Source of the DNA: a virus
Lineage: Duplodnaviria > Heunggongvirae > Uroviricota > Caudoviricetes
DNA: 64,000 nucleotides
Reading direction: 5' to 3' (one strand)
Virus record (IMG/VR): IMGVR_UViG_2654587772_000002
The position numbers were made by a program, and so were the translations under genes. Positions 3,318 through 53,644 of this stretch are shown one piece after another; the first letter of the stretch is position 1; the number at the start of each line of letters is the position of its first letter. The notes beneath the pieces were generated by a model, which had not been told where the DNA came from, did not search any database, and was given only the letters and a program-made list of their open reading frames with translations.

Positions 3318-3929
3318 TTAATTTCCTGCTTTCAGTTGCTTAAGACGGCGTTTGAGTTCGCCATTCCGTGCCTTTTCGTTATTGAGTCGGCCCGTCTCCT
3401 TATCCAACTTCGCCCGCAAATCTGTGATCTGCTGTTGATTGAAAGACACCGAATTCTGCGCGGACTTATAAGCGGCAACCACCTGAGCATTCCGCTGTTT
3501 TGCTTCTTGCAGGCGCTGAAAGTTGGATTTAACTGCCGGTTTCTTGTCTACCGGATTGGCAACACGCTTCGCTTTGGCGATCAGTGATTTCTGGAATTTC
3601 GCAGAGTTTTTGCGGGCCGCTTGCCCCATGACGGTACCAAGCGTCTTGATATCTGGCGACTGTGCGTTAGGAATAGATTTTCCATTCAGTTTCACAGCCG
3701 ATATATCACCAGTATCGTTTACCTGTATGGCAAGAATTTGTCCGTCGTTAAGAACCAGTTTTGCGGTTTTAACTTTAACGCCATCTTTCGTTGTTGCGCG
3801 GTTGCTGGAGTCAACCTCAATTACCGTAACACCGGTTTTATTGATCGCCGCGATAAGGGATTTCAGCCCCTTTTCATTAACCTGGTCAAAATCGACCGTT
3901 GCATACTTATTTTTCGTCATCTGACACAT
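3318..3929 (-). CDS. Hdf-like protein (203 aa), homologous over about 60 aa to part of the downstream 639-aa protein
   Basis: ORF track. Shared motif ..DGQ.L.I.....NSAKFQ followed by a basic coiled-coil tail in both proteins. Confidence 0.6.
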   Translation of the reverse strand: MCQMTKNKYATVDFDQVNEKGLKSLIAAINKTGVTVIEVDSSNRATTKDGVKVKTAKLVLNDGQILAIQVNDTGDISAVKLNGKSIPNAQSPDIKTLGTVMGQAARKNSAKFQKSLIAKAKRVANPVDKKPAVKSNFQRLQEAKQRNAQVVAAYKSAQNSVSFNQQQITDLRAKLDKETGRLNNEKARNGELKRRLKQLKAGN

Positions 3930-4350
3930 CCTGTGCGAGATTTATTACGTAACTTCTGCGGATTTGCTGAGTAACAGGGAAAATCCGATACAACGGGTTA
4001 ATGAACGAGTCGCCATGCGTAACCATGACGTTGAAATGCCACAGTCGCTCTCCTTTACCCATATATTCAGTGGGTATGTACAACCATTCACTGTTTTCGC
4101 CCTGTTCAGCCGACGTCAGACAACGTTGTTCGCCTTCAATCACTGTCGTCGGCTTCTGAACATCGCGGATCCAATATCTGACCGTTGCGCCGCGCAAAAA
4201 CGGGAATTTAGACCGGTATTTGAACGGCACCCGAATGAAACCCGGTTTAATTTCCACATCACCAAGTTCTAAATGCGTGATGTCCTTGCGTTTTAGCAAA
4301 TAGCGATCGGCTAAGGCTAACGCAAGAACGCATACACCCCAGCCAATCAT
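3907..4350 (-). CDS. Membrane-anchored protein (147 aa), putative LydB-like antiholin
   Basis: ORF track. Single N-terminal hydrophobic helix (IGWGVCVLALALA). Overlaps the upstream holin-like gene by 4 nt. Size matches recalled P1 LydB. Confidence 0.5.
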   Translation of the reverse strand: MIGWGVCVLALALADRYLLKRKDITHLELGDVEIKPGFIRVPFKYRSKFPFLRGATVRYWIRDVQKPTTVIEGEQRCLTSAEQGENSEWLYIPTEYMGKGERLWHFNVMVTHGDSFINPLYRIFPVTQQIRRSYVINLAQDVSDDEK

Positions 4351-4676
4351 TTCCCACCTCCCTTTTTCACCAAACTTGTAAGAACATTCAGAATGCTATC
4401 GATATTCACTCGTTTCATCCCTGAAATCACCTCATGACCGTTATTGCTGGCTATCGTTACCATTAAGTACGTAATTGATAACTCCCAGCCTTCGTGTTGC
4501 CCCAATAGGTACGCCACCGCGCCAGCTGTCACTGCAACAAAGATCTCCGTAACCAATCCCAACAAGTTGCCAGACTGGCGACCATCTCGGACATCCATCA
4601 GGAACGTGCCTATCCCACCAATTACTGAAAGCAGGAGCGCAATAGCAACTGGAGCTAATTCCTGTGTGTCAAGCAC
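4347..4676 (-). CDS. Small membrane protein with 2-3 TM helices (109 aa), holin-like (LydA-like)
   Basis: ORF track. Hydrophobic segments APVAIALLLSVIGGIGTFL, EIFVAVTAGAVAYLLG and ITYLMVTIA, with a charged C-terminal tail. Confidence 0.55.
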   Translation of the reverse strand: MLDTQELAPVAIALLLSVIGGIGTFLMDVRDGRQSGNLLGLVTEIFVAVTAGAVAYLLGQHEGWELSITYLMVTIASNNGHEVISGMKRVNIDSILNVLTSLVKKGGGK

Positions 4677-4778
4677 AAGTTCCCTCCTACGTTGTCAGGA
4701 GGTAATGGTATGCAAAGTAACTTCTCAACCGGTCATGTTACTTGACATCCTCCACGTCCTTTAGAGCGTGGAGGATGT

Positions 4779-5650
4779 GTGCGCCCAGCATGGGCGCGAT
4801 CTTGGAGGTGAAAGCCCTCCCGCGAGCTGACCACAGCGAGCGAAAGGAAGTGCAACTGCGTGAGGGCGGCTAGGCGTGGGGAGGAAGCACGGAATGAACC
4901 CGTGAGCCGATGAACAAGAATCGGATATGAGGCGCGATGGAGCAAGGCGAGCAGGCACATCACTGCGAAGCTTTCGTGACAAAGTCGCGTAGATCCGACG
5001 GTTGTGCGGGGAAGGATCGCGTTCTTACCTGGGGAGTTCTCGCCTCATGCCTGAAAGGGCAACGTCGTAAGACGGAGCGAGAAGTCAGCAGAGGCCGTAG
5101 TAGTCAGGACTCCGACGAAGGGCCGAACGAGAAGGAAAGCCAAAAGATATGACTCTTGACAGGACATTGCGTCAGAAGCCGGGGAAGCCCGGTACGGACC
5201 CGCATGCCGGGTGGTGTGGCAGGGGCGCAGCCTTGTGCTCCCCCCTATGCCGATCAAGCAGAACATTGTGCTGGGCCTCTGACGCATCTCCTTGATGGTC
5301 TTGGCATCGTGCTTAAGTGGATTGGTGTCGTCTCTGATAGGCTCATGGAGGCAGAATGAAACTCAAAAATCCGGGACAGCACGCAAAACAGGCTGCACAA
5401 AAAGCGCAGGTTGCGTAGGAGTGGAATCCCGCTCCCAAAAAATGGTGCAGAAGTTGCGGCAGTGGTCATCCGACGCACTGGAAAATAACAAACCCGCCGT
5501 GACCAGAATCGGAGGCCTGAGGGAGTGACCGTAAAACCGGATAACCCAGGCAGCAAATACCCGCTGGATGAGGCATGGTTCCGGCAGATAATACCGAAAA
5601 CCGCCAGACACACTGGATAATCAGTAGAAATAACCCATTAAAATCATTAT
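4779..5650 (+). mobile_element. GC-rich non-coding region with a group II intron-like 5' end (GUGCG plus first stem); possibly an ORF-less or degenerate intron; 3' boundary unknown
   Basis: GTGCGCCCAGCATGGGCGCG at about 4779 resembles the canonical group II 5' end and first domain I hairpin. An 8-bp hairpin (CCTCCACG...CGTGGAGG) lies just upstream. No long ORF on either strand and no reverse transcriptase. I could not identify a canonical domain V by eye. Confidence 0.3.
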
Positions 5651-5674
5651 AATAATTGGGCACATTATTATATT

Positions 5675-6238
5675 ATGCTGAATAATAGAGACATGAATAT
5701 TAATGAACTTAAAGACTGTATTCACTATGAAGTAATCGGTAGCGAGCGTCCTTTCTCCTGGCGAAAGGCAATTGTTCGCGCAATAAAACATAGAAGAGTT
5801 CGTTATTTATTTTGGTGGCGCATAGCCAAATACCTTTTTGATAAAGGCGGATACTGTCGGAAGATTGCGGGGAAAATGGAACGTTTCATTCTTGATAAAT
5901 ATAGTGTAACAGTCCCTTTAACTGTAAATATAGGGAAAGGCTTTGATATTTCTTATCTCAACGGTGTTGTTATCGGTCACAAAGTAACCATTGGTGAAAA
6001 TTGTTCAATAAAACCAGGGGTAACTATTGGGCTACGTGGTGATTTTAATGATATGGATATTGTTATAGGACATAATGTGACCATTGGTTGTAATGCCACC
6101 ATTCTTGGTGGCAAAGTGCGTATAGGAAACAATGTCACAATAGGTGCTCATGCATTGGTATTGCATGATATTCCTGATGATTCAACATTCATCACTAAAT
6201 TTCAGTCTGAAGTTATCTGCTCGTCCTCTTGCACATAA
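5675..6238 (+). CDS. Hexapeptide-repeat acetyltransferase, serine O-acetyltransferase (CysE)-like
   Basis: Tandem [LIV]-G-x-x-x-x hexapeptide repeats ([21 protein letters not shown]...[32 protein letters not shown]) after a CysE-like N-terminal helical segment. AT-rich, and on the opposite strand to the flanking phage genes. Confidence 0.8.
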
Positions 6239-6819
6239 CCCTGATTCATCAGCTCTGGCCATACGATATCCGGAGCTGTACTGGTGTCAATTCGACTCAC
6301 TAATACTCTGTATTTTCTCCAGGAATCCAGTTGTGAATTTTCCTCGGTTGTTGCTATTTCAAGATTAACTGCATCCTGCAGAATTGCGATGTTATCTGTT
6401 GCCTCCTGAATCAACCTTGCCTTTTTCTCTTCCGCTTCCCGTATCCGAAACAGTTTTTCTGCTTCCTCATCCTTCACCCAGGATACGCCGTCCCACTTCT
6501 GATACTCCCCTGCTGGCGACAACCAGGTGACATTCTCTGGTAACGGTCCGAGTTCAGAAATAAACAACGCGTCCCCCGATGCCACGTCATAGACCGTTTT
6601 ACCACGATGGTCTTCAACAATAATCCATGATTCATTTTCACTGTTAAAAACTGCCACAAAGCCAGCAGGAATTTCCGGTGGGGCGATATCTGTAGAATTA
6701 GCTGGTAGCCCTGTATGAGGTGGAATATATGCGTCACCTTCACCAATAAACTCATTAGTTCCGGCGAGCAGGTTATAAATTTTTACAGTACGTGATTGTT
6801 CACTCATTCTGAATGCCAT
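6202..6819 (-). CDS. tfa: Tail fibre assembly protein (Tfa/gpU family)
   Basis: N-terminus [54 protein letters not shown] is typical of the enterobacterial Tfa family. Sits immediately downstream of the tail fibre gene. Confidence 0.85.
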
Positions 6820-7709
6820 TATGCAAGCCTCACAATATAATTAAATGCGATGTTTTTAACGGTGTTTTCCGAGTTACCAGCAGCGTTAACGGTGATGGTG
6901 TGTCCATGTGAACCAATCGCAACAGAGTGCGTATGAGCGCCAATATCAACTGTATGTGCATGCGCCCCTGCACTTGCAGCGGTGCCTGATACTGAGTGGG
7001 TGTGTGCACCAGAAGAAGGCACAGTTCCATTCCCCACCACAGTGCCGCTTGATGAGCCATCAAGCCAGTCGAAATTCATACCGCCACCATCTGGTCTCCT
7101 TAATGGAACGGTATGAGTATGTGCGCCAGCACTATTTGCAGTACCAGATACATTGTGGGTATGTGCACCTGTGTTATTCGTTGATTTAGTACCGTAATCA
7201 AACGAAGATGTGGTTTTCGTACCCAAATCCGTATTGGATGCGCTGGCGCTGTGGGTGTGCGATTTAATGCCATCCTGTTCCAGAGACAATACGTCCCGAC
7301 CACTGGCGGGTTTGCCCTTGATTGTCCAGCCACGCATATCCGGGATCACGCCTGACGGATAAGCGGCTGCAAGTTTCGGGTATGCAGATTTGTCAAAAGT
7401 CTGTCCCTGCATCAGGGCGTAACCAGACGGCACAGTATCTGATGGCCACGGATGCGGAACACCAACAGGAAGGACCTCAATATCCCCGGAACCATCAAAC
7501 GAAACGTTATTAATTTTACGGGCTGTTTTCAGCTTTGTAGCCGTTGAGGCATTGCCGGACAGCTCACCAGAAATGCCACCAACAACTGTTAGATCACCAG
7601 TTATTGTGCCGCCTGAACTTTCCAGTTTTTTAGCAACATCACTCTTAATAGAGTCGATTTCTTTTTTCAGATTAGTTATATCTGCTGGTATCGTTGTCAC
7701 TGTTGCCAT
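6819..7709 (-). CDS. Tail fibre distal (receptor-binding) module with HxH/GAHTH repeats
   Basis: Carries the junction motif [26 protein letters not shown], then [32 protein letters not shown], repeated GAHTH(S/T)V motifs and the C-terminal [11 protein letters not shown] typical of side tail fibre tips. Confidence 0.8.
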
Positions 7710-7718
7710 ATTAATTCC

Positions 7719-7997
7719 TTACGCCCATTCCCGCAGCGGTTGTTCTAATTGAACTTCAAAACCATCAAACATTTGTTGTTTCAAACTGTTGTTTAAAATA
7801 CGAACATTAACGAAGAAGCCATCATTTTTAATCACTGTTGGTTCTTCGTTCTCGCCGTTTGGTATTTCGGTATATGTAACACCTACAACATCAAGAAGAA
7901 TGTTGTTTTGCAGCTCTTCATTATCGTGCCAGGATATACTCTCTAAAAAAGAGTCGTATTCTGCCCTGTCTCTGAATTTCAACGTGATATCTTTCAT
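7719..7997 (-). CDS. Hypothetical protein (92 aa) between the tail fibre genes
   Basis: ORF track only. Acidic, no motif recognised. Abuts the stop of the long fibre gene. Confidence 0.4.
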   Translation of the reverse strand: MKDITLKFRDRAEYDSFLESISWHDNEELQNNILLDVVGVTYTEIPNGENEEPTVIKNDGFFVNVRILNNSLKQQMFDGFEVQLEQPLREWA

Positions 7998-10897
7998 TAA
8001 ATAACCTCAGCCATTTGTTGGTCTGTTAATGCTTTATGCCATATTCTGAAATTTCTGATATGACCAAATAAATGACGTAACCCTGCTGTAGTCTGGCCTC
8101 CAATACGGATGGTTGCAGAGTTCTGAATATAGGACCATGTCGTCTTTGTTTCGCTGGATATGCGCCCGTTACTTACTGAGCACGTAGACTGATCTGATTT
8201 TACACGCATCCCCATAACCATTTTTTCAAGCAATGCGTTTTCGTTTACCCGTCTGTTAGCTCCTCCAATATCGCAATAAGGAAATCCGTCGTAATCTGCT
8301 GAAGAACCGAAGCCAAGAATAATAGCCGCTCCGGTTTGATGACCGCCGGTATCAAAAACACGTGGCGCTGCATTTGGCGTTTTATACCAGTTCTTATGTA
8401 CCTCACAAAGAACCGTAAAAGGAAGATTATAAAGATTATTATTAATTGGAACTGTAACTATATCGCTTGCGCGGGTAGCCGCCGTCGTTCCCGAGATAAT
8501 AAAAGATGATGCACACGAACCATCCTCAACCTGAGGGGTGGACAGATAAATATAGTCTCCAGATATGGTTGCTCCGCCCTGCTTAGGAGAATACTGTATC
8601 TGAGATCCTATTTTTAACTCATCATCAATTGCCTGGATTGTTGCCTCTGCAAAAATCCATCCGGTAGCTTCGTCCTTTCTGACTCTCGCTGTAATCCTTG
8701 AGGCCGCGCCACCTGTCATATTAATTTCAAGCGTTTGTGTATCAATATATGCATCACCAAGAAAAGTTGTTGCACTACCGTCATATTTATCAAAGCGGAT
8801 ACGTAACCTTACCTGTCGTTCTGTTTTAAAACGACATGAGGTTGTCACGTACTTGTTATCGCCTGAAACATCAACTGACTTTGTAGCAGCAATTGATGCC
8901 ATATTAATGGCTGACGTTTGCCCAATCAGAGAATCGTTACAGACAAACTTTCCATAGGTAAAACCAAAACTATCCGTCCCGGTTTCGGGAACATCCATAT
9001 TTGACGAGCGCCCCCAACTGGCAGGGTTTTCCGAATTGAGCATGTAGTTTGTTCGTTGTCCCTCAATAAGCAGACCATCACGTTCAAATCGTGGCTCGTC
9101 AATGGCAGCCTCTGTCAGCACACCAGATTTATTTATATAGGTTGCTTTCGATGCGCGTTTAAACTTAACAACCTTGTCGCCAGGCATTGTTATTTCGTCG
9201 TCGCCAATAACAATCTTTTTATATGATGGAGAAAAGCCCGCAATCATATCCAGCGAATCGTTAAACGGTATCCACACATCTGGCAGCGGTTGAATAATCT
9301 TCCTGGCATCCTCCAGTGACAATGCTTCGACATCCGAAGCTGTTAAAGAAATATCTGCCGAACCGTCAAATGAAACGTTGTTAATCATCCGTGCTGTTTT
9401 TAATTTCGTTGCGGTGTCGGCGTTCCCCATCAGTGCGCCGGTGATCCCGCCGTTGAAAGTCTGGCGTGCACTCCATGTGTTAGCCGTGCTCAACAGGGGG
9501 ATCTTTTCACCGCTTGTGCCGAGTTCTCTTAAACCAAGGTATTGGATAACAGCAAGGACGCTTGTTTTGGACAGAATATCGCGACCGACTGACGTTAAGT
9601 CAGTCTGAGAAACAGTGTCTGTACCGGTAAAGTACGGCAGTTTATTTGCGCCTGTAGCAAGACCAGCAAGCGCGGTTAAAGTTGCATCCAGAGGCTGTTT
9701 GCCTGCCAGCGCATTTGTCATTGTTGTCGCAAAGTTCGGGTCATTACCAAGTGCTGCGGCAAGCTCATTCAGGGTATCAAGAGCTTCTGGTGATGAACCA
9801 ACCAATGCGGATATGGCAGCTCTTACATAAGCAGTCGTAGCAATCTGCGTATTATTTGTGCCCTGCGCAGCCGTAGGCGCAGTAGGGACTCCCGTTAATG
9901 CAGGGCTTGCCAAAGGCGCTTTGAGGGCTAGGGCATTGTTGATAGTTGTGCTGAAATTCGGGTCGTTATTGATCGCAGCAGCTATTTCTTTAAGCGTATC
10001 CAGTGTGCCAGGTGCACCGTTGATAAGTGCCGTTATAGCTGACTTAACAAAGGCTGTATTTGCGATCTGCGTGCTATTTGTACCTTGCGCTGCCGTCGGC
10101 GCGGTTGGCGTTCCTGTCAGACTCGGGCTTTCTATTGGCGCTTTGGTATCAGCAAGACCTTTTACAGACTTAACGGCTTTAGGGGTAGCCGCCATTGTTT
10201 CGCTGTCGCTGTTAGTTTCGCTACTGAGCTGAACTAATCCCTTTTGCGTTGTGCTTGCATCCTGTGCCGTATACTTGCTTTTCGCCAGATCGTAGGCTTT
10301 TTTAGCTGCCAGCGAACTTGCAGCAACATCACTTCTGCTACTGGTTACAGAGTCTGAAATATCAATGCCGATCGTGCGGTTAATACGCTCGGATGTATCA
10401 ATCATCTCCTGGGTAATGGCTGATACGCCAGCAGGGATATTCACCGTACAAACAAGCAGCTCTCCATCTCCTAACTGATATGAATCGGTATAGGTTCTGG
10501 CAACAAATTCAGCCGCATGAATATGTGACGCGGTATTAACCTGATAGGTATCCTCTCCAAGGAGGTATCTTCCCTTCAGCACAATTGCATATTTCTTGCC
10601 TTCACTAAGTGCAAGAGAAATATCCTTACGGTGCCGAATAGTTACCTGGTAGAATTCACCAATATCCACTGACGCAGCGCCAGCAGTTTTATCACCATCC
10701 ACTGAGGTGATTAACAGGTTCATACCACCGCCAGGCTTCGGCAGGAAACCGGCATAAAACCCAGGATCAACAATTCCCCTGAATTTTCGGTTTAGCGCGG
10801 CTGACAGATATGGTTCGTGGTATTGCACATCAGCCACCAGAGCCAGTGACTCGGGCGATGGGTAAGTAACTGATGTAACAACTGTAACGTCATTCAT
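7997..10897 (-). CDS. Long tail fibre protein (Stf / gpS-like), about 966 aa from the internal Met
   Basis: Start set by codon arithmetic at Met30 (MNDVTVV...). Contains the TQKGLVQLSSETNSDSETMAATPKAVKSV fibre motif, collagen-like Ala/Thr/Pro repeats, and the junction motif [26 protein letters not shown] followed by its own C-terminal domain. Confidence 0.85.
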   Translation of the reverse strand: MNDVTVVTSVTYPSPESLALVADVQYHEPYLSAALNRKFRGIVDPGFYAGFLPKPGGGMNLLITSVDGDKTAGAASVDIGEFYQVTIRHRKDISLALSEGKKYAIVLKGRYLLGEDTYQVNTASHIHAAEFVARTYTDSYQLGDGELLVCTVNIPAGVSAITQEMIDTSERINRTIGIDISDSVTSSRSDVAASSLAAKKAYDLAKSKYTAQDASTTQKGLVQLSSETNSDSETMAATPKAVKSVKGLADTKAPIESPSLTGTPTAPTAAQGTNSTQIANTAFVKSAITALINGAPGTLDTLKEIAAAINNDPNFSTTINNALALKAPLASPALTGVPTAPTAAQGTNNTQIATTAYVRAAISALVGSSPEALDTLNELAAALGNDPNFATTMTNALAGKQPLDATLTALAGLATGANKLPYFTGTDTVSQTDLTSVGRDILSKTSVLAVIQYLGLRELGTSGEKIPLLSTANTWSARQTFNGGITGALMGNADTATKLKTARMINNVSFDGSADISLTASDVEALSLEDARKIIQPLPDVWIPFNDSLDMIAGFSPSYKKIVIGDDEITMPGDKVVKFKRASKATYINKSGVLTEAAIDEPRFERDGLLIEGQRTNYMLNSENPASWGRSSNMDVPETGTDSFGFTYGKFVCNDSLIGQTSAINMASIAATKSVDVSGDNKYVTTSCRFKTERQVRLRIRFDKYDGSATTFLGDAYIDTQTLEINMTGGAASRITARVRKDEATGWIFAEATIQAIDDELKIGSQIQYSPKQGGATISGDYIYLSTPQVEDGSCASSFIISGTTAATRASDIVTVPINNNLYNLPFTVLCEVHKNWYKTPNAAPRVFDTGGHQTGAAIILGFGSSADYDGFPYCDIGGANRRVNENALLEKMVMGMRVKSDQSTCSVSNGRISSETKTTWSYIQNSATIRIGGQTTAGLRHLFGHIRNFRIWHKALTDQQMAEVI

Positions 10898-10908
10898 CAA
10901 GCATATCC

Positions 10909-11343
10909 TTATGCTATAGTCGTGTTGATGGCCATAACTGCGGTATATGTTTTTCCCACATACAGCGAGTCTTCCTGAACACAAATAATTGCGATGGGCT
11001 TATTCTCGTTATCCAGAACAACCAGAGTGTTGAATGGATAGTTTTTCCCTTCCTGCAACTGGCTTTGATCAAGGTCCATTCGGACAGTAATTATCCCGCC
11101 AGAGTAGGTTGGGACGAGGTTGATGGTGCAAAATTGACTGGTCAGTTCTGCCAACTCGAAAGTCTTTGGCAGTTCTCCAATGTCATAAGTACCATCTTCA
11201 TTTTTGGTAACCAGCGAACTGGTGCCGAAAACGGCCTTGCTGATTAAAAATCGAGAGCCTTTGTTAATGGACGATTCAGCGCGTCGCTGATAGTAATAAT
11301 CCAACAACTGACTCTTATAGAGATTTGTTGAGACGTCAGACAT
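10909..11343 (-). CDS. Tail fibre/baseplate-associated protein (144 aa), gpR-like by position
   Basis: ORF track. Immediately upstream of the long fibre gene. Confidence 0.55.
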   Translation of the reverse strand: MSDVSTNLYKSQLLDYYYQRRAESSINKGSRFLISKAVFGTSSLVTKNEDGTYDIGELPKTFELAELTSQFCTINLVPTYSGGIITVRMDLDQSQLQEGKNYPFNTLVVLDNENKPIAIICVQEDSLYVGKTYTAVMAINTTIA

Positions 11344-11421
11344 GATTTTCCCTAATCAATGTTGTGAAGCCTCATTGTAAGAGAAGTAACTTGTCACCCC
11401 GCCCTGCGGACGGGGTAATTG

Positions 11422-12261
11422 TCAGGCATCGCTATCCAGCAGCAAATCATCTGCGCGGGAGCGATCAAACGTAGGCGTTGCTTTCACAATAGTGCCGCCC
11501 GGCGTTGCAGTGATCGGGGCACTAATCGACGTAACTCCGGCAAGCGAAGTTGTATCCGAAGTTTCAAACCAGCAGTACGCTTTTTCGGTATCAGAAATCT
11601 CGTTCAAAGTGATCATGTCGGCCTGTTCATTTACAACAACCGACAAATAGAGCGTAAGCCCATCAAACACTATATGCAGTGGCAGTAGAGGCTTTACGAA
11701 CTGATTAAACTTTCTGAGAATTTCTTCTGTAATTGCGGACTGATCTATCGTGCCAGTAATACCCATTGTCCTGGCCAGGTCGTTTATGGGAATACTGATC
11801 ATCCCTCTGGAAGTCAGAAACATCTCGCCGAATGTGCCGCCAGTAGTCTCCAGTGTGCTTTCTGGTATTAGAACTGTGCCATAGGGATGACGCTCAAGGT
11901 CCACCGGTGCATATATCGGATCCCATAAAACAGAAATACCGTTAAATTCGCGGTAAATTGTCTGGTTTATAGGACGTTCAGTTCCCTTAAAGTGGATCTC
12001 ATCAAGCCGCTGTTGTAACAACATCGGAACGGAAGATGAGTTCGAGGTTCTGATAGTAAAGAACTGGCCAAGTTCATTTGTCCTGGTCTCCAGATCCTCC
12101 TTGCTCATGGAGAAAATAGACTTCCGGTTGGTAATTCGCTCCAACCATGGGTCAACAAAGGTGTCCATCATTGACTGAACCAAATCAGCCAATGATTTAT
12201 AGAGCAATGACTTTTGCTTAGCTGATGTAAGCCGGTTATTAAACCAGGAACGCTGCATCAC
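11422..12261 (-). CDS. Baseplate/tail protein (279 aa)
   Basis: ORF track. Overlaps the upstream gene by 4 nt. Position between the baseplate-like 477-aa gene and the fibre genes. Confidence 0.55.
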   Translation of the reverse strand: MMQRSWFNNRLTSAKQKSLLYKSLADLVQSMMDTFVDPWLERITNRKSIFSMSKEDLETRTNELGQFFTIRTSNSSSVPMLLQQRLDEIHFKGTERPINQTIYREFNGISVLWDPIYAPVDLERHPYGTVLIPESTLETTGGTFGEMFLTSRGMISIPINDLARTMGITGTIDQSAITEEILRKFNQFVKPLLPLHIVFDGLTLYLSVVVNEQADMITLNEISDTEKAYCWFETSDTTSLAGVTSISAPITATPGGTIVKATPTFDRSRADDLLLDSDA

Positions 12262-13691
12262 TCCTCCTCATACGAAATATTAAAGGTGGAGCTTTCTGTA
12301 TCCAGATAAACGAAATCGTAAAAGCCGTTGGACTCATTCCACTCGACAAATTCCAGATAAAAGTCGCGGAAATAACCCAGCGTTTCGATAAACGCCCAAA
12401 CGTCTTTTTTCTTAATCAGGATGTACTTTCCGACGCGGTTCGGATCAAAGAAAGTTGAGTCGCGCCCAAATTTTGTTTCCAGTGCCGACTTCAGCTCATC
12501 GGTCACATTCTCAATGGTCAGGCTTGCCGATATCCGTCCGGTGATGGTTATCTTAAATGGTAGTTTTCTGACCTCTTTATAAGAGAATTTCTTGTTCAGT
12601 TCATTCGGTACCTTCTTAAAGGCAGTCAGGATCATTTCTTCAAGCTCTGACTGGCTTTTATTTGGATGCCATCCTGAAATAAATATCTTATTGATATTCT
12701 GAACATTATAAGCACCATCTAATTTCTCTTGCTGGCCTTCGCCCCATGCCTTTACCCAGGACAGCCCCGGGATGTTACGAACCAGAAAATACGTATAGTC
12801 CCCGCCCCATACGACCTGATCATCATAGGCAAGGTAATATTGTGCACGGTTACGTGTGATCTCCGTTGTTTCAGCATCGGTACCTGCGGTTATAGGTGTC
12901 GTTGTCTTAACTGAAATCAAATTAGCTAAATCAGCCGCAGAATCGACAGGCGTCAGGTTTTGGCCAGCAACCAGGGTTATATCGCCGTTGGTGCACCATA
13001 CCTTAAGCGTAATTGTCGAACCTTCTGGCGGTATTTGCCCAATTAGCCCATCGCCGAATCGAACCCCCAACTGCTCGGATGGTTTATAAAACTCAACGTA
13101 GACCTGGCTTTTACTACCGGCTAACCGGAACATAGTGCTGGAAGACCACTGCGTGGTCTTCCCATCGGTTGTCACGAATACTTCCAGCTTATAGCAGACA
13201 GCAGTAAGAGCCTTTGATAACACGACTTCCAGAAATTCTTTGGCTGCCGTAACGGTATATGTCACCTCCTGGATTTCCAACTGTGCCACTTCTACCGTAC
13301 CGGTGCCGTCAACCAACCTGCATACATCCATAGTCATGTAAGGGTACTGGTCGTCAGATATTAAAGGCATGTTTTTGGGGATTACCGCTGGGGCATCTTC
13401 ACTTGTGGCGGTGATCTCAATCATCCCCGATGACGGTGTTGGCTTGGTACCAACATAACTGTTCGTTTCTGCCGCAGCCAGGATAGAGGAACGCCGCGTC
13501 GCGGTCGATATAAAGCCTTCAGCCAGCGCCGCATCGGCATACTGAAAGCACCTGTAGACAATCTGGGTAATAAACAATGTCAGCATCGAGACAAATTGAG
13601 AGCCGACAAACTTCGACCAGAATGAATCTTTCTCGACAAGCTCTTCAAACTCTGCACGAATACTGTCTTTAGTCGGTGTTGTTTTACTCAT
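12258..13691 (-). CDS. Putative baseplate J-like structural protein (477 aa)
   Basis: ORF track. Size and position in the tail module. Assignment by context, not motif. Confidence 0.55.
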   Translation of the reverse strand: MSKTTPTKDSIRAEFEELVEKDSFWSKFVGSQFVSMLTLFITQIVYRCFQYADAALAEGFISTATRRSSILAAAETNSYVGTKPTPSSGMIEITATSEDAPAVIPKNMPLISDDQYPYMTMDVCRLVDGTGTVEVAQLEIQEVTYTVTAAKEFLEVVLSKALTAVCYKLEVFVTTDGKTTQWSSSTMFRLAGSKSQVYVEFYKPSEQLGVRFGDGLIGQIPPEGSTITLKVWCTNGDITLVAGQNLTPVDSAADLANLISVKTTTPITAGTDAETTEITRNRAQYYLAYDDQVVWGGDYTYFLVRNIPGLSWVKAWGEGQQEKLDGAYNVQNINKIFISGWHPNKSQSELEEMILTAFKKVPNELNKKFSYKEVRKLPFKITITGRISASLTIENVTDELKSALETKFGRDSTFFDPNRVGKYILIKKKDVWAFIETLGYFRDFYLEFVEWNESNGFYDFVYLDTESSTFNISYEEE

Positions 13692-20850: not shown

Positions 20851-23800
20851 TCAGCTGATACTGATGCCTGCGGTGGCTTTCTTCATCACCACAACCAGCA
20901 AATCGCTGATACTTGCTGTGGGATACCAGCCATTTACCCACCATGCTGATACCGAAAACTCCAGTGTCATTACGCCACTGCCTGCAGGCATATCAATAAC
21001 ACCCGTGTAAATCAGAGTATTATCCAGAGCCGTTCGGTTATAAATTTCAGCCCCGTTTTTCTTCACTATCAGGCGGCATGACGAATAAGTATCGCTATTC
21101 TCCCGTTCATGTCTGGCACCGCTGAAAGCCACCGCCGGGATAACAATTTGCCGGTCAAACGGCTGATCGTCATAAACCCTGACGGTAATGGTCCCTGATG
21201 GCCACCGTTCCGGTGCACGGGAGTCACGGGGGAAAGCTTTGCCCACTGTTTTAACGAGATCGCCTTCAATCTGGTTCGCGGACAGTTTTCCCAGAACCCG
21301 GCAGTTCTCGTTAATCGTGACGTTGTTGAGCGTCCCGGAGTTCGCATTCACGTTACCGCTGATATCGGCATTTTTTGCCGTCAGCCGCCCGTCCGGTGTC
21401 AGGGAAAATGCCGGAGGATTACCGCCGCTGGTAATGGTGGGAGCCGTCAGATATTTCAGGAACACTTCATTCATAAATATCTGATCGCCCTGACCAACAA
21501 ACATCGGCTTTGTGTTGCCATTCGCAGGATTAATCATCGCAATCCTGTCCGCCGCCAGCAGCACCTGACTCTGCATACCGTCAGGGGTATTCTCAATACC
21601 GGCACCAATACCCGCGATATAAAGGCGTCCGTCCTGCATCTGCTGCAGCTTCACAGCCCACATGCTGTTCAGGTTATTATTTGTATCAACCTGAACCTTC
21701 TGTATCTGCTGAATTGCCGCACTCTGGTCTTCCAGTTTCTTATTGACGGTCTGCGTGATTTCATTGCTGACATCCGTAATGGACGTCCTGATTTCAGCCA
21801 GGTCAGGCGCAAGCTGACCGTTATCAATCTGCGTCCACAGCTCCTGAGCCAGATGGCTTTTCCCTATCTCTCCTTTGAAAAAATCCAGATAGCCGGATGC
21901 ATCATCACTCGGCTGGCCAACAGCCTCCACAAATGCCGATTTGCCAACGGTGTTCACACTGCGGATGTAAAAATAATAATCATGGCCCGGTTTGATATTG
22001 ATACTGGCGGCTATCCAGTACAGCGCCGTGCCAAGATAGCGGGCTGTGGTTTCAACCTGCCTGATATCGGTAATCCGCTTTTCCGAGAACCAGAACTCAA
22101 ACTGTACCGTCGGGTCATAAATGGCAAGATGCGGCGTGGCGGTTATCTGAAAATAGCCCGGCGTCAGCTCAATCCTCGACGGTGCTGCCGGTGCGGCAAT
22201 CCGGAACGATACCGACGCCGCATCGCCCTGCTGCCCCACGCATTTACCGCCCGGACTGTCAGCCTGTAGTTCCCCAGCGCCAGTTGCGTGAAGCGGTATG
22301 TGGTTTCCGTCGTCCGGGCCGTGCTGACCAGCCGCTCACTGCCGTCGTCCGCTGTTACGGTCAGACGGAGCAGGAAGCTCACGCCCTTCACCACCTTCGG
22401 TGTGTCCCATCGCGCCAGCACCTGATATTCCCCGCTGTCTGCAGTGACTTCTGCGGTCAGGTGCTGCACCGCTGGCGGCGTGACACCATTCACCGTGCCA
22501 CTCTGTTCGCCGTCAAAGTGCGCCCCGTTATCCACGATGGCCTCTTTTTCCGGCACATGCTGCACGGCGGTGATGGCATACGTGCCGTCGTCGTTCTCAC
22601 GGATACTCACGCAGCGGAACAGGCGCTGGCGCAGCGTCGGCAGCTTCAGCCCCCATACGCTGTATTCAGCAACACCCTCAGGAACACGGCTCACTTTTAC
22701 CTTCACGCCGTCGTTGACGGACTGAACCTCCACGCTGACCGGATTGCCACTTCCGTCAACCAGGCTTATCAGCGTGGTACCGGAGGATGGCAGCGTGATT
22801 TCACGGTCGAGCGTCAGCGTCCGGGTCTGGCTGTTCACCGCCAGCACACGACCACCGGTGCTGATACCGGCATAGTCATCATCGCAGATTTCAATAACAT
22901 CGCCCGGTACATGGCGAAGCCCTTCTGCGCCGACGCTGAAATCCACGGTCTGCGTCTCCAGCAGCTCCGTTTTAATCAGCCACAGCCCGGCGCGGTGTGC
23001 CTGCCCCCGGCTGGTACAGCCAAAGGCATCCATCTTCGTAACATTACGACCGTAACGGGCAATGGCCTGCGTATCTTCAACAAGCTCTGTCGCCGTCTCC
23101 CAGCCGTTGTCCGGGTCAATCCAGTTCACCTCAACGGCATTATGGCGGTCTTTCAGGGCGCTGAAGCTGTAGCGGAACGGCGCGCCATCATCCGGCATCA
23201 CCACATTACTGCGGTTATAGGTCCACGCCTTATCCGACGGTCGGTCCTGCACGAACGTCAGCGTCTGCCCGTTCCATACCGGCATACAGCGCATCGCCGA
23301 GCAGAAATCACTGAGAACGTCCCACGCCTTGCGCTGTGTGGTCAGGTACGCATTACAGGTGATGCGCGGCTCCGTGCCGCCAAAGCCGTCCGGCACTGAC
23401 TGGTCGCAGTACTGGCCGATGACATACAGCGCCCATTTGTCCACATCCGCCGCACCAAGACGTTTCCCCATGCCGTAGCGCGGATGGGTCAGCATATCCC
23501 ACAGACACCAGGCCATGTTGTTGCTGTATGCTGGCTTAAACGTTCCGTCCCAGATACCGCTGTATTGTCGCGTCTGCGGGTTATAGTTCGACGGCACCTG
23601 CAGAATGCGCCCGCGAAGATGATAATTACGACTCACCTGCTGGCTGCCGAACTGCTCCGAGTCCACCTGTACGCCGACCAGTGCCGTGTTCGGGTAGCAC
23701 TGTTTCACATCGATGATTTCGGTGTATGACGACCAGAGCGTTTTGTTCTGCAGCTGGTCTGTGGTGCTGTCCGGCGTCATCCTGCGCATCCGGATATTAA

Positions 23801-24329
23801 ACGGGCGCGGCGGCAGGTTATCCACCACCACCGAGGCCAGATACTGCGAGGTGGTTTTGCCTTTAATGGTGATGTCTTTTTCCGTCACCCAGCCACCGTT
23901 ACGCTGTATCTGAACCAGCAGGCGGACTTCCGACGGATTCCGGTCCCCCTTTGAGGTGGTTTCCACCAGTGCCTGCACACCGAAGGTAAAGCGCAGACGG
24001 TCGATGTTTGCAGACGTGATGGTCCGGGTAATCGGCGTGTCGTACTTCACTTCCGTACCCAGCACCGTCTCGGAGCCGGAGGATTCAAACCCCTCCGGCG
24101 GTGTCTGCTCCTGCTCACCGGCACGGAACACCACCGTGACACCGGAGATGTTGGTATTCCCCTCAGTGTCCAGCACCGGCGTACTGTTCAGCAGCACGCT
24201 TTTTAATCCATCCACCGGACCTTCAACCGGCCCTTCGCTGATGGCATCGATCACACTCAGCAACTGCGTGGACTTCAGGTTGTCCTTCGCTTCGCGCGGG
24301 GTATGCCCCTTACTGCTTCCTTTACTCAT
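20851..24329 (-). pseudogene. J: Tail tip / host specificity protein J, split by a 1-nt frameshift at about 22234-22237
   Basis: The 721-aa ORF (22164-24329) matches lambda J (MSKGSSKGHTPREAKDNLKSTQLLSVIDAISEGP...) up to ...RAVNAWG, then goes out of frame. The 462-aa ORF (20851-22239) resumes the J sequence ([30 protein letters not shown]...) in another frame. The break is at a GGGG run on the coding strand. Confidence 0.85.
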
Positions 24330-24389
24330 TCCTCACGCTCCATAAATGACAAAACCGCCCGCAGGCGGTTTCACATAAAACATTTTGCA

Positions 24390-25061
24390 TCAGCGACCAA
24401 TCACCACAACCTGACCACCGTCCCCTTCGTCTGCCGTGCTGATCTCCTGAGAAACCACGCGTGACCCCACGCGCATTTCCCCGTACAGAACAGGCAGAAC
24501 ATTGCCCTGGGCAACCATGTTATCCAGTGAGGAGAAATAGGTGTTCTGCTTACCGTTATCCGTTGTCTGTGTACGGGGAGTTCTGGCTTTCGGTGCCAGC
24601 ATCTGCGCCACACCACCGAGGACCATACTGGCACCGAGAGAAAACAGGATGCCGGTCATACCACCGGCCCCAATGGCTGCCCCCCATGCTGCAAGGGTGG
24701 CTCCGGCGGTAAAGAATGATCCGGCAATGGCGGCAGCCCCCAGGACAATCTGGAATACGCCACCTGACTTGGCCCCGGCGACTCTGGGAACAATATGAAT
24801 CACAGCGCCATCAGGCAGAGTCTCATGTAACTGCGCCGTTAACCCGGACGTGCTGACGTCCCGCCCGGCAATCCGTACCTGATACCAGCCGTCGCTCAGT
24901 TTCTGACGAAACGCCGGGAGCTGTGTGGCCAGTGCCCGGATGGCTTCAGCCCCCGTTTTCACACGAAGGTCGATGCGGCGACCAAATCGTTGTAAATCCC
25001 CGTAAAGGCAGATGCGCGCCATGCCCGGTGACGCCAGAGGGAGTGTGTGCGTCGCTGCCAT
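24390..25061 (-). CDS. I: Tail assembly protein I
   Basis: Near-identical to lambda gpI as recalled, including the Gly/Ala-rich hydrophobic middle and C-terminal ...GGQVVVIGR. Confidence 0.9.
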   Translation of the reverse strand: MAATHTLPLASPGMARICLYGDLQRFGRRIDLRVKTGAEAIRALATQLPAFRQKLSDGWYQVRIAGRDVSTSGLTAQLHETLPDGAVIHIVPRVAGAKSGGVFQIVLGAAAIAGSFFTAGATLAAWGAAIGAGGMTGILFSLGASMVLGGVAQMLAPKARTPRTQTTDNGKQNTYFSSLDNMVAQGNVLPVLYGEMRVGSRVVSQEISTADEGDGGQVVVIGR

Positions 25062-25702
25062 TTGTCGGTGTACCTCTCTCGTTTGCTCAGTTGTTCAGGA
25101 ATATGGTGCAGCAGCTCACCGTCACCACAGTAAATGGCGGCATGATTCGGCACCGATGAACCAAAACAGCACAGCAGCACATCGCCCGGCTGCGCCGCTG
25201 ACAACGGCACCTGATACAGCCCTGTGGCCTCCAGATTATCCAGATAGAGATTCTGACCGTGACGCCACCAGTCATCCCCGCGATGAAAATCCGGCATCTC
25301 AATCCCCGCCAGATGATAAGCATCCCGGAACAGCGTGTAACAGTCCGTCACCCCGTGCTCAAAGCGCCGCCCGGTGAGATGCGGCACACAGCGGAACTTA
25401 TGAATCGCCCCCCGGCAGACCAGCCACCACGGCAAATCACTCTGCACCTGCAGCCGCCGGTCAGCCTCACTCAGCCAGGGCAGACCACCGGGGTGGCTGT
25501 GGACCAGCGCCACAATCTCACCCTGCATTTCTGCCTGCAGCCAGTCCTCCGGAGCCATCCGGAAATAATCCTCCGGCTCACCGGAAATATTCACGCCGGG
25601 AAAATATCTTTCCCCCTCCGGCGTGCTTACCACGAAGCCGCACGACTCCGCTGGCGCACATCGCCGGGCGTGCGCCAGAATCGCTGATTCTGTCTGTGTC
25701 AT
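24959..25702 (-). CDS. K: Tail assembly protein K (JAB/MPN plus NlpC/P60-like)
   Basis: Matches lambda gpK (HSHPGG JAMM-like motif; Cys/His NlpC/P60-like C-terminal part). Overlaps I as in lambda. Confidence 0.9.
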   Translation of the reverse strand: MTQTESAILAHARRCAPAESCGFVVSTPEGERYFPGVNISGEPEDYFRMAPEDWLQAEMQGEIVALVHSHPGGLPWLSEADRRLQVQSDLPWWLVCRGAIHKFRCVPHLTGRRFEHGVTDCYTLFRDAYHLAGIEMPDFHRGDDWWRHGQNLYLDNLEATGLYQVPLSAAQPGDVLLCCFGSSVPNHAAIYCGDGELLHHIPEQLSKRERYTDKWQRRTHSLWRHRAWRASAFTGIYNDLVAASTFV

Positions 25703-25707
25703 GGGAT

Positions 25708-26406
25708 TTACTGCGAAAGTTTGTTAATGGAAAGGAAGCCGCCAAAGTTGCCGACGTTATTGCGAAACTTACAGCCACTCAGGCATTTGCTGCATTTATC
25801 CTTCGTGATATCGGACGTCGGCTGGTCATATTCATCCGCGACCGCCGGACCGCTATAACCGCACTCATCGCCGCGATAGGTCCAGGTGCAGGTGTTGGCC
25901 AGCATGATACGTCCCGGAAAAACAGCGCCATCCGTTTCAGTCGGCGTGGACAGTACAAAAGAGGCACTGACCGCGCTCAGTTCGCTGCACTGCTCGATGC
26001 GCCAGCGGCTGATCACCTCCTGCTCCGGATCGGCTTCGCTGTTTCCGTTGACGAAGTTCACCGCATCCAGAAAGCGGGCGTAAACCTTACGCCGGACCAC
26101 CGTTCCGCCGACCAGACTCTGCAGATCTTCCGCCATCCCGGTGATCATGCCGTGCAGGTTAGAGACCGTCAGTGTCGGACGGGCAGCACTGCCCTTGCCG
26201 TTCATCTCAAATCCACTCCCCTGAATGGGATAGGCCTGATACTGCCGACTCTGCCAGGTGACAGACTCACCTTTTTCGTTCTGCTCATTACAGAAAAAGT
26301 AGCGATCCCCGTCTACCTCTGTCAGGTCGATTTCCCAGAGCACCACGCTGGCAGACTGCTCCGCACGAATGCATTCATTCAGCGTTTCCTGTTGTATGTC
26401 CTGCAT
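25708..26406 (-). CDS. L: Minor tail protein L
   Basis: Near-identical to lambda gpL ([31 protein letters not shown]...; C-terminal Cys cluster CSKCLSGCKF). Confidence 0.95.
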   Translation of the reverse strand: MQDIQQETLNECIRAEQSASVVLWEIDLTEVDGDRYFFCNEQNEKGESVTWQSRQYQAYPIQGSGFEMNGKGSAARPTLTVSNLHGMITGMAEDLQSLVGGTVVRRKVYARFLDAVNFVNGNSEADPEQEVISRWRIEQCSELSAVSASFVLSTPTETDGAVFPGRIMLANTCTWTYRGDECGYSGPAVADEYDQPTSDITKDKCSKCLSGCKFRNNVGNFGGFLSINKLSQ

Positions 26407-46800: not shown

Positions 46801-47329
46801 ACAGCGAATCAGATCAAATAAAACGCACATTTGTTAACATTTACACAAAGTCTGCGTGGGATATTCTGAAAGAATATCCATAATGTGGAGAGAATCTATT
46901 GAAGTGCATGGTGCCGGGTGCCTCCCGGTGAACAAAATGTTCGTGATACCTGTCGGCGACAGAAAAGGTTAATGGTATCACCCCACCGCACAGGGGGATT
47001 CACCATGCAGGAGTTTTCTTAGCAAACTCACTGCGCGCCCGGCAACTCCCAACCACATAAAATGCGGAGTTTGTGGTATTTATGCATATAACTCGCAGGA
47101 ATTATCTTAAAAAACTGATGTCGATCCGGATTAAAAAGAAGCAGGTCATCATCAGATGACTGGAAAAAAGGAAAACAAAAAATACTCATCATACAGTTTT
47201 GATTGCAGGGATGAGCCTGCTATGCACAATATGCAGAATATAAGCAAGATAAAAATATGCAGGCATATTATTTCGGATTTTGTTATTAACACAACCTTTT
47301 TAATAATCATTTGGCATACAATAAACCAG

Positions 47330-49713: not shown

Positions 49714-51105
49714 ATGACTGAGAACACGACTCCAACAGCAGACTTTAGTCCTAGTAAAAGATTTTTTGTGAGTATGCTAACTCGAGATATCGACTTAAAC
49801 GATGCCATACTTGATCTGCTTGATAACTGCGTCGATGGGGCTTTACGTACAATAAAAGACACAAAAAAAACTTCAAAACCATATGAAGGATTTTATGCGA
49901 AACTTACGATTAATAAAGATGTCTTTATTATAGAAGACAATTGCGGAGGTATCCCTAAAAGCTTCCGAGAATATGCTTTTAAAATGGGACGACCCCATCA
50001 AAAAGAAGAAGAAAATGAAGGCACCGTTGGCGTCTATGGTATTGGTATGAAAAGAGCCATTTTTAAAATGGGTAGAGATTGCTCAATACAATCGAATAAT
50101 CCCGATGGCGCATTCACTGTAGATATAACACCTGATTGGATCGATGGTGATGGTTGGAAAATACCGATGCACGAGAGTGACTATGATAACAAAAATCCAA
50201 CAGGCACAACTATAGAGATAAAAAAACTCCATTCTAATGTGGCACAAAAATTTAATGAGAGCACATATCTTACTGATCTCTTTTTACAGATAAAACACTC
50301 ATTGTCATTTATTATTCAAAAAGGATTTAAAATAGAATTAAATGGAGTTGTTGTTGAACATAATCCGATTAACATCATAACTGATCATTCTAAAATAGAA
50401 CCATACATATATAAAGCTAAAATAGACGATGTTGATATCGATTTAGTTGTTGGCTTCTATAAAAATTTAGAAGATGACAATGATGATGTTTTAGAAAAAA
50501 GGAGTTCTGATGATGCTGGATGGACTGTCATTTGCAATGACCGCGTTGTTCTATATTGTGATAAGACACATCTCACAGGTTGGGGCTTTGCTAATGTACC
50601 AAGGTTTCATACCCAATTTATAGCAATTTCTGGGGTTGTTCGCTTTACCAGTAAAAACCCAGAAAAATTACCAATAACAACAACGAAACGAGGTGTCGAT
50701 CTTAGTTCTACATTGTACAATGATGTACGAAATAAAATGATTGAAGGGATGATGCATTTTATTCGATTCACCAATCAGTGGAAAGGTGAGCATCTTGAAG
50801 AAGGGAAAAAATTACTTAAGTCAGCTCAGTCACATGAAGCTCAATCTTTATTTGAAATTACCCCACAATCAACTCCAGAAGATAAAAAAAATAACTGGTC
50901 CAACCCTAATAGAAACAAAAATGAGTGGCGATATACACCTAAGCTGCCTACCCCAGTAAAAAAAAGCTCTACTGTACGAATAATCTTCACCAGAGAGAAA
51001 GAAGATGTTAAAATTTTATCTAAATATTTCTTTGGACATGAAGATGCTAGCGCTTCTGATGTGGGGATGCAATGCTTTGATACGGTGATTGAAGAGGTGA
51101 AGTGA
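49714..51105 (+). CDS. GHKL-family (histidine kinase / MutL / MORC-like) ATPase, 463 aa
   Basis: Bergerat-fold motifs in order: N-box LDLLDNCVDGA, G1-box IIEDNCGGIP, G2-box GTVGVYGIGMKRAIF. AT-rich. No histidine-kinase dimerisation domain and no receiver domain recognised. Confidence 0.9.
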   Translation: MTENTTPTADFSPSKRFFVSMLTRDIDLNDAILDLLDNCVDGALRTIKDTKKTSKPYEGFYAKLTINKDVFIIEDNCGGIPKSFREYAFKMGRPHQKEEENEGTVGVYGIGMKRAIFKMGRDCSIQSNNPDGAFTVDITPDWIDGDGWKIPMHESDYDNKNPTGTTIEIKKLHSNVAQKFNESTYLTDLFLQIKHSLSFIIQKGFKIELNGVVVEHNPINIITDHSKIEPYIYKAKIDDVDIDLVVGFYKNLEDDNDDVLEKRSSDDAGWTVICNDRVVLYCDKTHLTGWGFANVPRFHTQFIAISGVVRFTSKNPEKLPITTTKRGVDLSSTLYNDVRNKMIEGMMHFIRFTNQWKGEHLEEGKKLLKSAQSHEAQSLFEITPQSTPEDKKNNWSNPNRNKNEWRYTPKLPTPVKKSSTVRIIFTREKEDVKILSKYFFGHEDASASDVGMQCFDTVIEEVK

Positions 51106-53213: not shown

Positions 53214-53475
53214 ATAGTTGCAACGTCTCTTATTAGTTTCTATGTATTATAACACAACTGTTCTTGATGTTTTAACCCCATAAGATAACCTCATAAAGGC
53301 TATCCCTTGAAAATACCGGATCGCATAAATTTAATCTTTCAAAACTACTTGTCTATTAATCGAGCAATTTAAGGTTTTTTTAGTCATGTCGATACCGACA
53401 TAGTTAACTAAACCCATTTCATCGTCCAACAAATGGGGGTAATACACTTTGATTTATAGTCGGGTGGGTTTTTCT

Positions 53476-53511
53476 CTATCTGCCTTTGGTGTTCATGCCC
53501 AAGGCAGATAG
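53476..53511. repeat. Inverted repeat (11-bp stem, 14-nt loop) upstream of the methyltransferase gene (approximate position)
   Basis: CTATCTGCCTT...AAGGCAGATAG. No flanking T-run on either strand. Confidence 0.5.
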
Positions 53512-53644
53512 CCTCAAGCACCCGCAGCAATTCTACTTAACTATCCTTTTCCCGCAAATCGTTTTTATCCCCAGCGGCAAATCGAATACACAACCAGCGC
53601 CACCGCCATCGCAATTCCTACCGTTGTGAATGCTTCAGTCCAGG

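Follow-up and report, generated by a model that had tools for sequence, protein, structure and literature searches.

Module exchange at a conserved hinge and a probable two-piece tail fibre in a P1-like phage-plasmid

The tail-fibre locus described here lies on a stretch of 64,000 nucleotides (nt) of viral DNA, IMG/VR record IMGVR_UViG_2654587772_000002 of the Caudoviricetes (the whole stretch is hereafter called the window). By its sequence the window belongs to a P1-like phage-plasmid (Punavirus), and the locus forms the tail-fibre end of that element. The long fibre gene S is followed on the same strand by a gene for a protein of 92 amino acids (aa), by a second fibre gene for a protein of 296 aa, and by the chaperone gene tfa, and the two fibre genes contain the same hinge motif. 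The gene content of the locus, the homologies of its products, the recombination breakpoints and the conservation of a three-part junction in other phages argue for a two-piece fibre, in which S would be the proximal half and the 296-aa protein the distal half, ending in a needle of the T4 gp37 type. We regard this arrangement as likely.

The relationship with P1 is seen on both sides of the fibre modules. By megablast against phage records, P1, P7 and their relatives are about 95% identical to the window at ~9393-11400. By blastn against the P1 reference, the window is collinear with P1 at 3500-4736 (98.4% nt identity; the end of darA, hdf, lydB and lydA) and at 9393-12500 (95.8% nt identity; S in its constant part Sc, then R, gene 16 and the first part of bplA), and between 4736 and 9393 the same comparison detected no P1-like DNA except two 72%-identical matches to the hinge. 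The fibre operon runs in the order R, S, 92-aa gene, 296-aa gene and tfa, all on the minus strand (Table 1). In the phage, plasmid and complete Escherichia coli genome collections no record was found to cover at least 80% of the locus in one piece, so that this exact combination is absent from those collections. A scan for promoters and terminators gave counts equal to the expectation from shuffled sequence.

The open reading frame (ORF) listed for S, of 995 aa at 7997-10984, begins at an upstream TTG that overlaps R. As judged by comparison, the true start of S is the ATG at 10897 (MNDVTVV..., 966 aa), because the P1 S equivalent begins there. The N-terminal 518-528 aa of S are 95-96% identical to S of two P1-like relatives, and the protein ends in a domain that is not of P1 type, hereafter referred to as the C-domain. 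This domain matched the NCBIfam family NF048003, 'GTA head spike fiber' (GTA, gene transfer agent), with E = 8e-15 and 55.8 bits against a cutoff of 36, and the structure of the RcGTA head-spike fibre (6TB9) with E = 3e-6, together with phrog_1419 and, weakly, Laminin_G_3. It is 91% identical to the corresponding domain of the lambdoid phage Tritos and 65% identical to Gp22 of phage IrisVonRoten over 437 aligned residues. The C-domain is lectin-like and probably binds glycan.

The 92-aa gene is translationally coupled to S by a TAATG overlap. Its product was assigned to no Pfam or NCBIfam family, and the AlphaFold2 model of the protein was confident (pLDDT, predicted local distance difference test, 84.6), with fold matches that were uninformative. 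The gene was detected by tblastn in 181 phage records, and it adjoins a fibre gene in 40 of the 40 matches listed. A hidden Markov model search collected 62 clusters at 50% identity, all of small stand-alone proteins except three weak matches within long proteins. When other collections were scanned for the gene, viral contigs gave just seven loci and the one-genome-per-species set of bacterial contigs gave none. The 92-aa protein may be a component of the fibre joint or a chaperone of the C-domain of S.

The 296-aa ORF is regarded as a real gene because it has its own Shine-Dalgarno sequence (AAGGA) and ATG, 9 nt past the stop codon of the 92-aa gene, and because its neighbours are coupled, the start of tfa overlapping its stop codon. 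The product contains Pfam Collar (E = 1.6e-11), and its residues 78-296 matched the structure of the T4 gp37 tip, 2XGF, with E = 1.8e-82. In this part of the protein the identity with the T4 gp37 tip is about 75%, and the extreme tip alone (aa ~200-232) diverges. All the elements characteristic of a gp37-type tip, namely Collar, HxH repeats and a dedicated downstream chaperone, are present in the 296-aa gene and tfa. An initial annotation of this DNA, made from the sequence alone, had described the gene as a short N-terminus, a hinge and an HxH tip; the tip is real, with seven H.H motifs and the match to 2XGF, and the gene is more than a bare tip, having its own start signals and a conserved N-terminus.

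Table 1. Position, strand and supporting evidence of the fibre genes, domains and sites in the window
Feature	Position	Strand	Evidence
Gene R, opening the P1 fibre operon (gpR, for attachment or assembly of the tail fibre)	10909..11343	-	phrog_2032 E = 1e-83; collinear with P1 R, ~96% nt
Gene S, 966 aa: P1 constant part Sc, hinge 1, non-P1 lectin-like C-domain; proposed proximal half-fibre	7997..10897	-	Comparison with P1 S; Pfam Phage_fiber_2
Orphan cixR, relic of the P1 invertible C-segment	9527..9546		20/20 match to P1 cixR, inside S
Hinge 1 (36 residues, in S)	9344..9451	-	Protein alignment to hinge 2
C-domain of S (~450 aa), GTA-head-spike-fibre/galectin-like; proposed docking end	7997..9349	-	NCBIfam, PDB and PHROG matches
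92-aa gene; proposed joint protein or chaperone	7719..7997	-	phrog_1361 E = 1.6e-35; start overlaps S stop (TAATG)
296-aa gene, putative distal fibre: conserved N-terminal motif, hinge 2, collar, seven-HxH needle of T4 gp37 type	6819..7709	-	Pfam Collar and Phage_fiber; 2XGF
Hinge 2 (36 residues, in the 296-aa gene)	7473..7580	-	Protein alignment to hinge 1
Crossover interval in hinge 2	7525..7538	-	Three-way nt alignment of window, U2501 and CP115328
HxH needle region, aa 151-270, seven H.H motifs	6900..7259	-	Motif count and 2XGF match
Tfa, tail-fibre assembly chaperone, 205 aa, for gp37-type tip	6202..6819	-	Pfam Caudo_TAP E = 2.3e-39; phrog_105 E = 9e-94

The junction between the two fibre genes recurs as a three-part cassette in other phages. 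This cassette consists of a C-domain of ~435 aa (41-98% identical), the 92-aa gene (56-98%) and, after 9-12 nt, a gene starting with the tag M[AVT]T.T.IP.DIT.LK (hereafter a MAT-type gene), and it is complete in 15 of the 16 loci examined, in six phage groups that differ in their baseplates. Beyond the tag the downstream proteins continue in unrelated sequence of 98 to 586 aa, the tag alone being common to them. The loci include those of further P1-like plasmids, of a phage-plasmid of 48 kb whose baseplate is of P2 type, and of the lambdoid phage Tritos, the T5-like phages KookSpook and IrisVonRoten, the Queuovirinae phages KurtStettler and JenP1/2, tuinn of the Drexlerviridae and the Dhillonvirus KarlBarth. 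Since these carriers have unrelated baseplates and their downstream proteins share only the tag, the docking partner of the tag must travel with the cassette, and would be one of two products, the 92-aa protein or the upstream fibre in its C-terminal part. In E. coli, more than 15 plasmids combine the same cassette with full-length tips of other kinds. In the 48-kb plasmid (NZ_CP070136.1, E. coli FDAARGOS_1281), the cassette including hinge 1, C-domain, 92-aa gene and distal N-terminus is 97.7% identical in nt to that of the window, indicating that it moves between two phage-plasmid families. This plasmid is a RepA plasmid that carries P2-type baseplate and tail genes.

A close known counterpart is the Gp22-Gp23-Gp24 module of IrisVonRoten (Tequintavirus, Bas32). 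In the model published for this phage, Gp24 attaches to the proximal fibre Gp22 (PMC11990801, legend to Fig 12B), and at its C-terminus Gp22 has a galectin-like domain, which protrudes at the joint and may serve as an additional receptor-binding domain (PMC11990801). The window contains every sequence element of this module, that is, the C-domain, the overlapping 92-aa gene and the tagged downstream gene; besides the C-domain (65% identity), the two agree in the 92-aa protein (54% identity), in the spacing of the genes and in the N-terminal motif of the distal gene, which reads MVTKTVIPTDITKLK in IrisVonRoten. The two systems differ outside the module, IrisVonRoten being a siphovirus in which the N-terminus of the proximal fibre resembles T5 pb1, not P1 Sc, and in which the distal fibre is T-shaped, 574 aa long and equipped with two receptor-binding domains and an intramolecular chaperone, whereas the window encodes a 296-aa needle and a separate Tfa.

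A total of 28 among the 36 residues are identical between hinge 1 in S and hinge 2 in the 296-aa protein (tblastn E = 3.4e-15), and the hinge regions gave 63% identity over 51 aa by blastp (E = 5e-14). Beyond the hinge, the sequences of the two proteins are unrelated, so that the shared junction motif followed by unrelated C-termini, as first noticed from the sequence, is real. No further copy was detected in the 64 kb, the next best tblastn match having E > 0.3. At the nt level, where an alignment had been proposed as a check, the similarity is likewise real but short, with 41 matches in 51 positions (80%) and a longest exact run of 8 nt. Because S of P1 and of its relatives each hold two copies of the hinge in one protein, at aa 495 and 628 in P1 and at aa 495 and 941 in plasmid CP115328, the motif is not peculiar to the window locus and is no special duplication of it. 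Taken by itself, the hinge segment gave matches to many PHROG fibre families that are otherwise unrelated.

Three relatives, two plasmids and a phage, are informative on the origin of the locus. CP115328 is 98.4% identical to the window at 3500-7581 and 98.3% identical at 9351-12500, and through the 1236 bp that separate these shared blocks its S continues as a single gene of 1181 aa. This S is composed of Sc, hinge 1, three pyocin-knob-like repeats, hinge 2 and the same gp37-type tip, the tip being 95% identical to aa 41-296 of the 296-aa protein. Phage Ro157c2YLVW has a shorter fused S with HxH tip, of 949 aa, and in-frame fusions of the long fibre to the same HxH tip, which had been put forward as a check on tip exchange, are thus present in both relatives. 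Plasmid U2501 (NZ_KU980950.1), on the other side, is 97.6% identical to the window at 7489-12500 and shares with it the C-domain, the 92-aa gene and the N-terminus of the short gene, and its tip beyond hinge 2 differs from that of the window. In the three-way alignment of the gene strand, the window is identical to U2501 through ...ACGGCT and to CP115328 from AGCCCGT... on; ACAAAGCTGAAAAC (14 nt at 7525-7538, the codons of TATKLKT) is the sole stretch common to both parents at the switch, and the blast breakpoints at 7489 and 7581 bracket this interval. Informative sites are U2501-like to ~10174 and CP115328-like from ~11154. Since the parent switches in hinge 2 and again between ~10174 and ~11154, the window is, as deduced from these alignments, a double recombinant with one crossover in the conserved Sc/R DNA and the other inside hinge 2. 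Tip exchange at a conserved hinge, the central proposal of the initial annotation, is therefore supported by a change of parent inside a 14-nt stretch of hinge 2. Homology to three relatives with a single-gene S breaks at the end of hinge 1, at 9350/9351.

As judged from the sequences that remain, the Cin-invertible tip segment of P1 is lost in the lineage of the window. Homology to P1 ends at 4736, just short of lydC and cin, and a group II intron fragment and an acetyltransferase gene stand in place of these two genes. A tblastn search with P1 Cin yielded one chance match (E = 1.1) in the 64 kb, extending to the whole window the earlier remark that no invertase is nearby. The orphan cixR is retained within S, no second cix-like site with up to 4 mismatches and no cixL were found in the 64 kb, and the window contains no Sv'/U' arm. 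Among the components of the P1-type Cin/cix switch, Sc and R are thus present, while cin and the paired inverted cix sites with their alternative arms are absent. In U2501, cin, cixL and a 690-aa Sv' arm are intact and face cixR in S, and the cassette is one arm of an intact Cin-invertible segment, opposite to a one-piece Sv'. From this position the cassette is considered to be used as an expressed alternative in U2501, in which inversion would alternate the two-piece cassette with a one-piece S' fibre. Inverted repeats flanking the region around 6.8-8.0 kb, proposed earlier as something to look for, amounted to short chance pairs of no significance. The absence of a nearby reverse transcriptase of a diversity-generating retroelement (DGR), also claimed at the outset, agrees with the lack of long direct repeats of the DGR kind at 4000-12000 and with the lack of any reverse transcriptase among the neighbour genes as annotated in a near-identical copy from E. 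coli ST2747, although not every ORF of the window was scanned for reverse transcriptase domains. This copy (NZ_CP007393.1, 2140864-2156093, in the chromosome assembly) is 99.98-100% identical over 3500-12500.

The stretch at 4737-5650 that occupies the place of P1 lydC and cin is GC-rich (0.557) and has no credible ORF. It includes group II intron D1-D4 fragments at 4860-5024 and 5042-5123 on the plus strand (RF02001, 95.5 bits; RF01998, 46.8 bits); neither an ORF for an intron-encoded protein nor a further Rfam family at E <= 0.01 was detected within it. The same stretch is about 98% identical in plasmids CP115328 and CP056621 and in the ST2747 copy. Next to it, at 5675-6238 on the plus strand, is a gene for a hexapeptide-repeat acetyltransferase, which is convergent with tfa, overlaps the 3' end of tfa by 37 nt, and is labelled serine or WcaB-like acetyltransferase in relatives. 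This gene may be a lysogenic-conversion or surface-modification gene that travels with the unit of gp37-type tip and Tfa.

The following course of events and fibre structure are proposed. A P1-like backbone with an S ending in a gp37-type tip would have recombined with a cassette-carrying relative, by one crossover in the conserved Sc region and another in the second TATKLKTAR hinge, and this mobile cassette would have contributed the lectin-like C-domain followed by a stop codon, then the 92-aa gene and, of the second fibre gene, the start and the N-terminus. In the resulting fibre, S would form the proximal half, held at the P1 baseplate through Sc together with R, and the lectin-like domain would be situated at the joint, where it may bind a surface glycan. 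A trimer of the 296-aa protein would most likely dock on the distal end of S by its conserved N-terminal tag and a short coiled-coil-like stretch, and the 92-aa protein may be a joint component or help in assembly. At its end the distal half would carry the seven-HxH metal-binding needle, folded by Tfa. Each fibre would then present both of its binding modules, the lectin at the side and the needle at the end, simultaneously, with no alternation of tips by inversion as in P1.

Three other explanations of the 296-aa gene were weighed against the two-piece fibre. That its product is an independent second or short fibre bound directly to the P1 baseplate, with the 92-aa protein merely a chaperone of the C-domain, appears unlikely. 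Phages with several fibre sets do exist (PMC8594841), the coupling of the small gene to S would suit a chaperone, and the rV5-like phage nomo (MN850578.1) has the C-domain and a divergent small protein with no MAT-type gene downstream. However, the 296-aa protein shares nothing but the hinge with Sc or with any P1 baseplate protein, direct binding would require a pre-existing site on the P1 baseplate, and the N-terminal tag is found in siphoviruses and myoviruses with unrelated baseplates, always right after the pair of C-domain and 92-aa gene. The suggestion of a second fibre, which the initial annotation held in reserve, is accordingly retained as far as a separate fibre protein is concerned and modified in that this protein is better viewed as the distal half of a two-piece fibre than as an independent one. 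It is improbable that the 296-aa ORF is a non-functional remnant of an S split by insertion of the cassette. In favour of such a pseudogene, the C-terminus of a full-length S shares 95% identity with aa 41-296, and the NCBI pipeline (PGAP) calls the homologous ORF a truncated pseudogene, 'incomplete, missing N-terminus', in two relatives, ST2747 and pPSS-10_3; the ORF of the window is, however, intact with its Shine-Dalgarno sequence and ATG, its N-terminal 43 aa are the conserved motif of 15 loci and not random read-through, the Tfa chaperone is kept intact, and the cassette carries other full-length tips in the E. coli plasmids mentioned above.

In the initial annotation, the 296-aa gene was taken for a ready-made spare tip, silent in itself, which homologous recombination from hinge to hinge would fuse to S so as to switch the receptor. 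The geometry would allow this, as the hinges are in register and in the same frame and a crossover between hinge 1 and hinge 2 gives an in-frame fusion of Sc, hinge and gp37-type tip; relatives with such fusions exist, and the alignments document a past crossover within hinge 2. In E. coli, however, recombination by RecA needs roughly 20-30 bp of identity, and since the longest exact match between the hinges is 8 nt, far under this requirement, recombination between them within the genome is unlikely. As the hinges are direct repeats, their recombination would lead to irreversible deletion and not to a switch, and no recombinase is present by the Cin search of the 64 kb. A silent cassette would have no need of its own start signals or of an N-terminus that is conserved in 15 of 16 loci. 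Both the spare tip and the switching are for these reasons very improbable.

Several observations also weigh against the two-piece fibre itself. The AlphaFold2 model of the C-domain of S, from an alignment of 19 sequences, reached a pLDDT of only 41, and the attachment published for IrisVonRoten is a prediction and not an experiment (PMC11990801). The pseudogene calls by PGAP count on the same side, and so does nomo, in which the pair occurs without a MAT-type gene, suggesting that the small protein may serve the C-domain rather than the joint. Finally, the ST2747 copy is without 7929-9515, that is, the C-domain and part of the 92-aa gene, and because this part was lost there the cassette is dispensable for plasmid maintenance. 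The missing segment has its right endpoint 11 nt from cixR, and its endpoints show no microhomology; the gap could be a real deletion or an assembly artefact.

The small-protein homologue of nomo is without the C-terminal ...PLREWA tail, precisely where the MAT-type fibre is also missing, which hints that the C-terminal tail of the 92-aa protein may be the part relating to the distal fibre.

When the proposed two-piece fibre is compared with known systems, the S/Sv-U / Sv'-U' operon of P1 agrees with the locus in R and Sc (~95% nt), in the sequence of cixR, in genome position and in the hinge after cixR. The window differs from P1 in being without cin, cixL, the Sv'/U' arm and inversion, and in taking its tip from a separate gene, not from the 3' end of S. 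The long tail fibre of T4 is built of gp34 as the proximal part, gp35 as the knee and gp36/gp37 as the distal part, with gp38 or Tfa as chaperone. The gp37 needle has a close homologue in the distal tip of the window (2XGF, seven HxH), and the order of proximal fibre, small protein, distal fibre and chaperone is that of T4 genes 34-38, the gp37-like tip alone being homologous; S and the 92-aa protein have no detected similarity to gp34, gp35 or gp36, and likeness to the knee would be one of analogy. In the LtfA/LtfB fibres of DT57C and DT571/2 and in gp14/gp15 of phiEco32, a second fibre is also held via a first one and both can carry receptor-binding domains (PMC4728585, PMC10713586), with the difference that docking in LtfA is internal, that both proteins end in S74 chaperone domains, and that no GTA-spike-like C-domain is present. 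DT57C LtfA/LtfB was considered as the same module and rejected, as blastp and tblastn gave one weak match (E = 0.011), its locus contains no 92-aa homologue, and the N-terminus of LtfB is unrelated.

Since the early 1990s, fibre segments have been known to be exchanged at conserved motifs. Sandmeier et al. in 1992 and Haggard-Ljungquist et al. in 1992 are reported to have described such exchange in the mosaic fibre genes of phages P1, P2, Mu and lambda and of the T-even phages. The window differs from these mosaic genes in nothing essential, TATKL.TAR.I.GV.FDGS joining otherwise unrelated segments, and the locus is an ordinary but clean case of fibre-module shuffling at a conserved junction motif. 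The hypervariability of lydC-cin-Sv'-U'-U-S and the replacement with Tfa and acetyltransferase genes in P1-like plasmids have been described before (PMC9603915), and lateral fibres made of two proteins are known in siphoviruses (PMC8594841, PMC11990801, PMC4728585). Mosaic fibres and the division into proximal and distal halves are thus established biology, and the new part is modest: a proximal/distal cassette in P1-like and P2-tailed phage-plasmids, its fixation here in place of the Cin switch, and the resolution of the crossover to 14 nt.

In E. coli, resistance genes are commonly carried by P1-like phage-plasmids, and P1 itself serves as a vehicle for DNA delivery; the range of bacteria that these elements reach is set by the fibre locus. 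The P1-like element of the window gave up tip switching by Cin, most likely for a fixed two-piece fibre with two different binding modules. For host-range engineering, practical places to splice are the TATKLKTAR joint and the short docking tag at the N-terminus of the distal fibre. More tentatively, and with considerable doubt, the C-domain, the 92-aa protein and the MAT-motif N-terminus might constitute a universal plug-and-socket joint of tail fibres, the 92-aa protein being a new structural knee or adaptor functionally like T4 gp35. If so, the proximal fibres of myoviruses and siphoviruses alike could accept any distal fibre whose N-terminus bears the tag of 15 residues, and P1-like phage-plasmids would use the joint to show lectin and needle together instead of phase variation.

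Outside the fibre locus, a match to the small RNA STnc100 is located at 46852-47038 on the minus strand of the window (Rfam 86.6 bits against a gathering score of 47). The GC content is ~0.46 over most of the window and departs from this value at 22001-26000 (0.58-0.59) and at 50001-54000 (0.34-0.40), stretches that may be acquired cargo regions.

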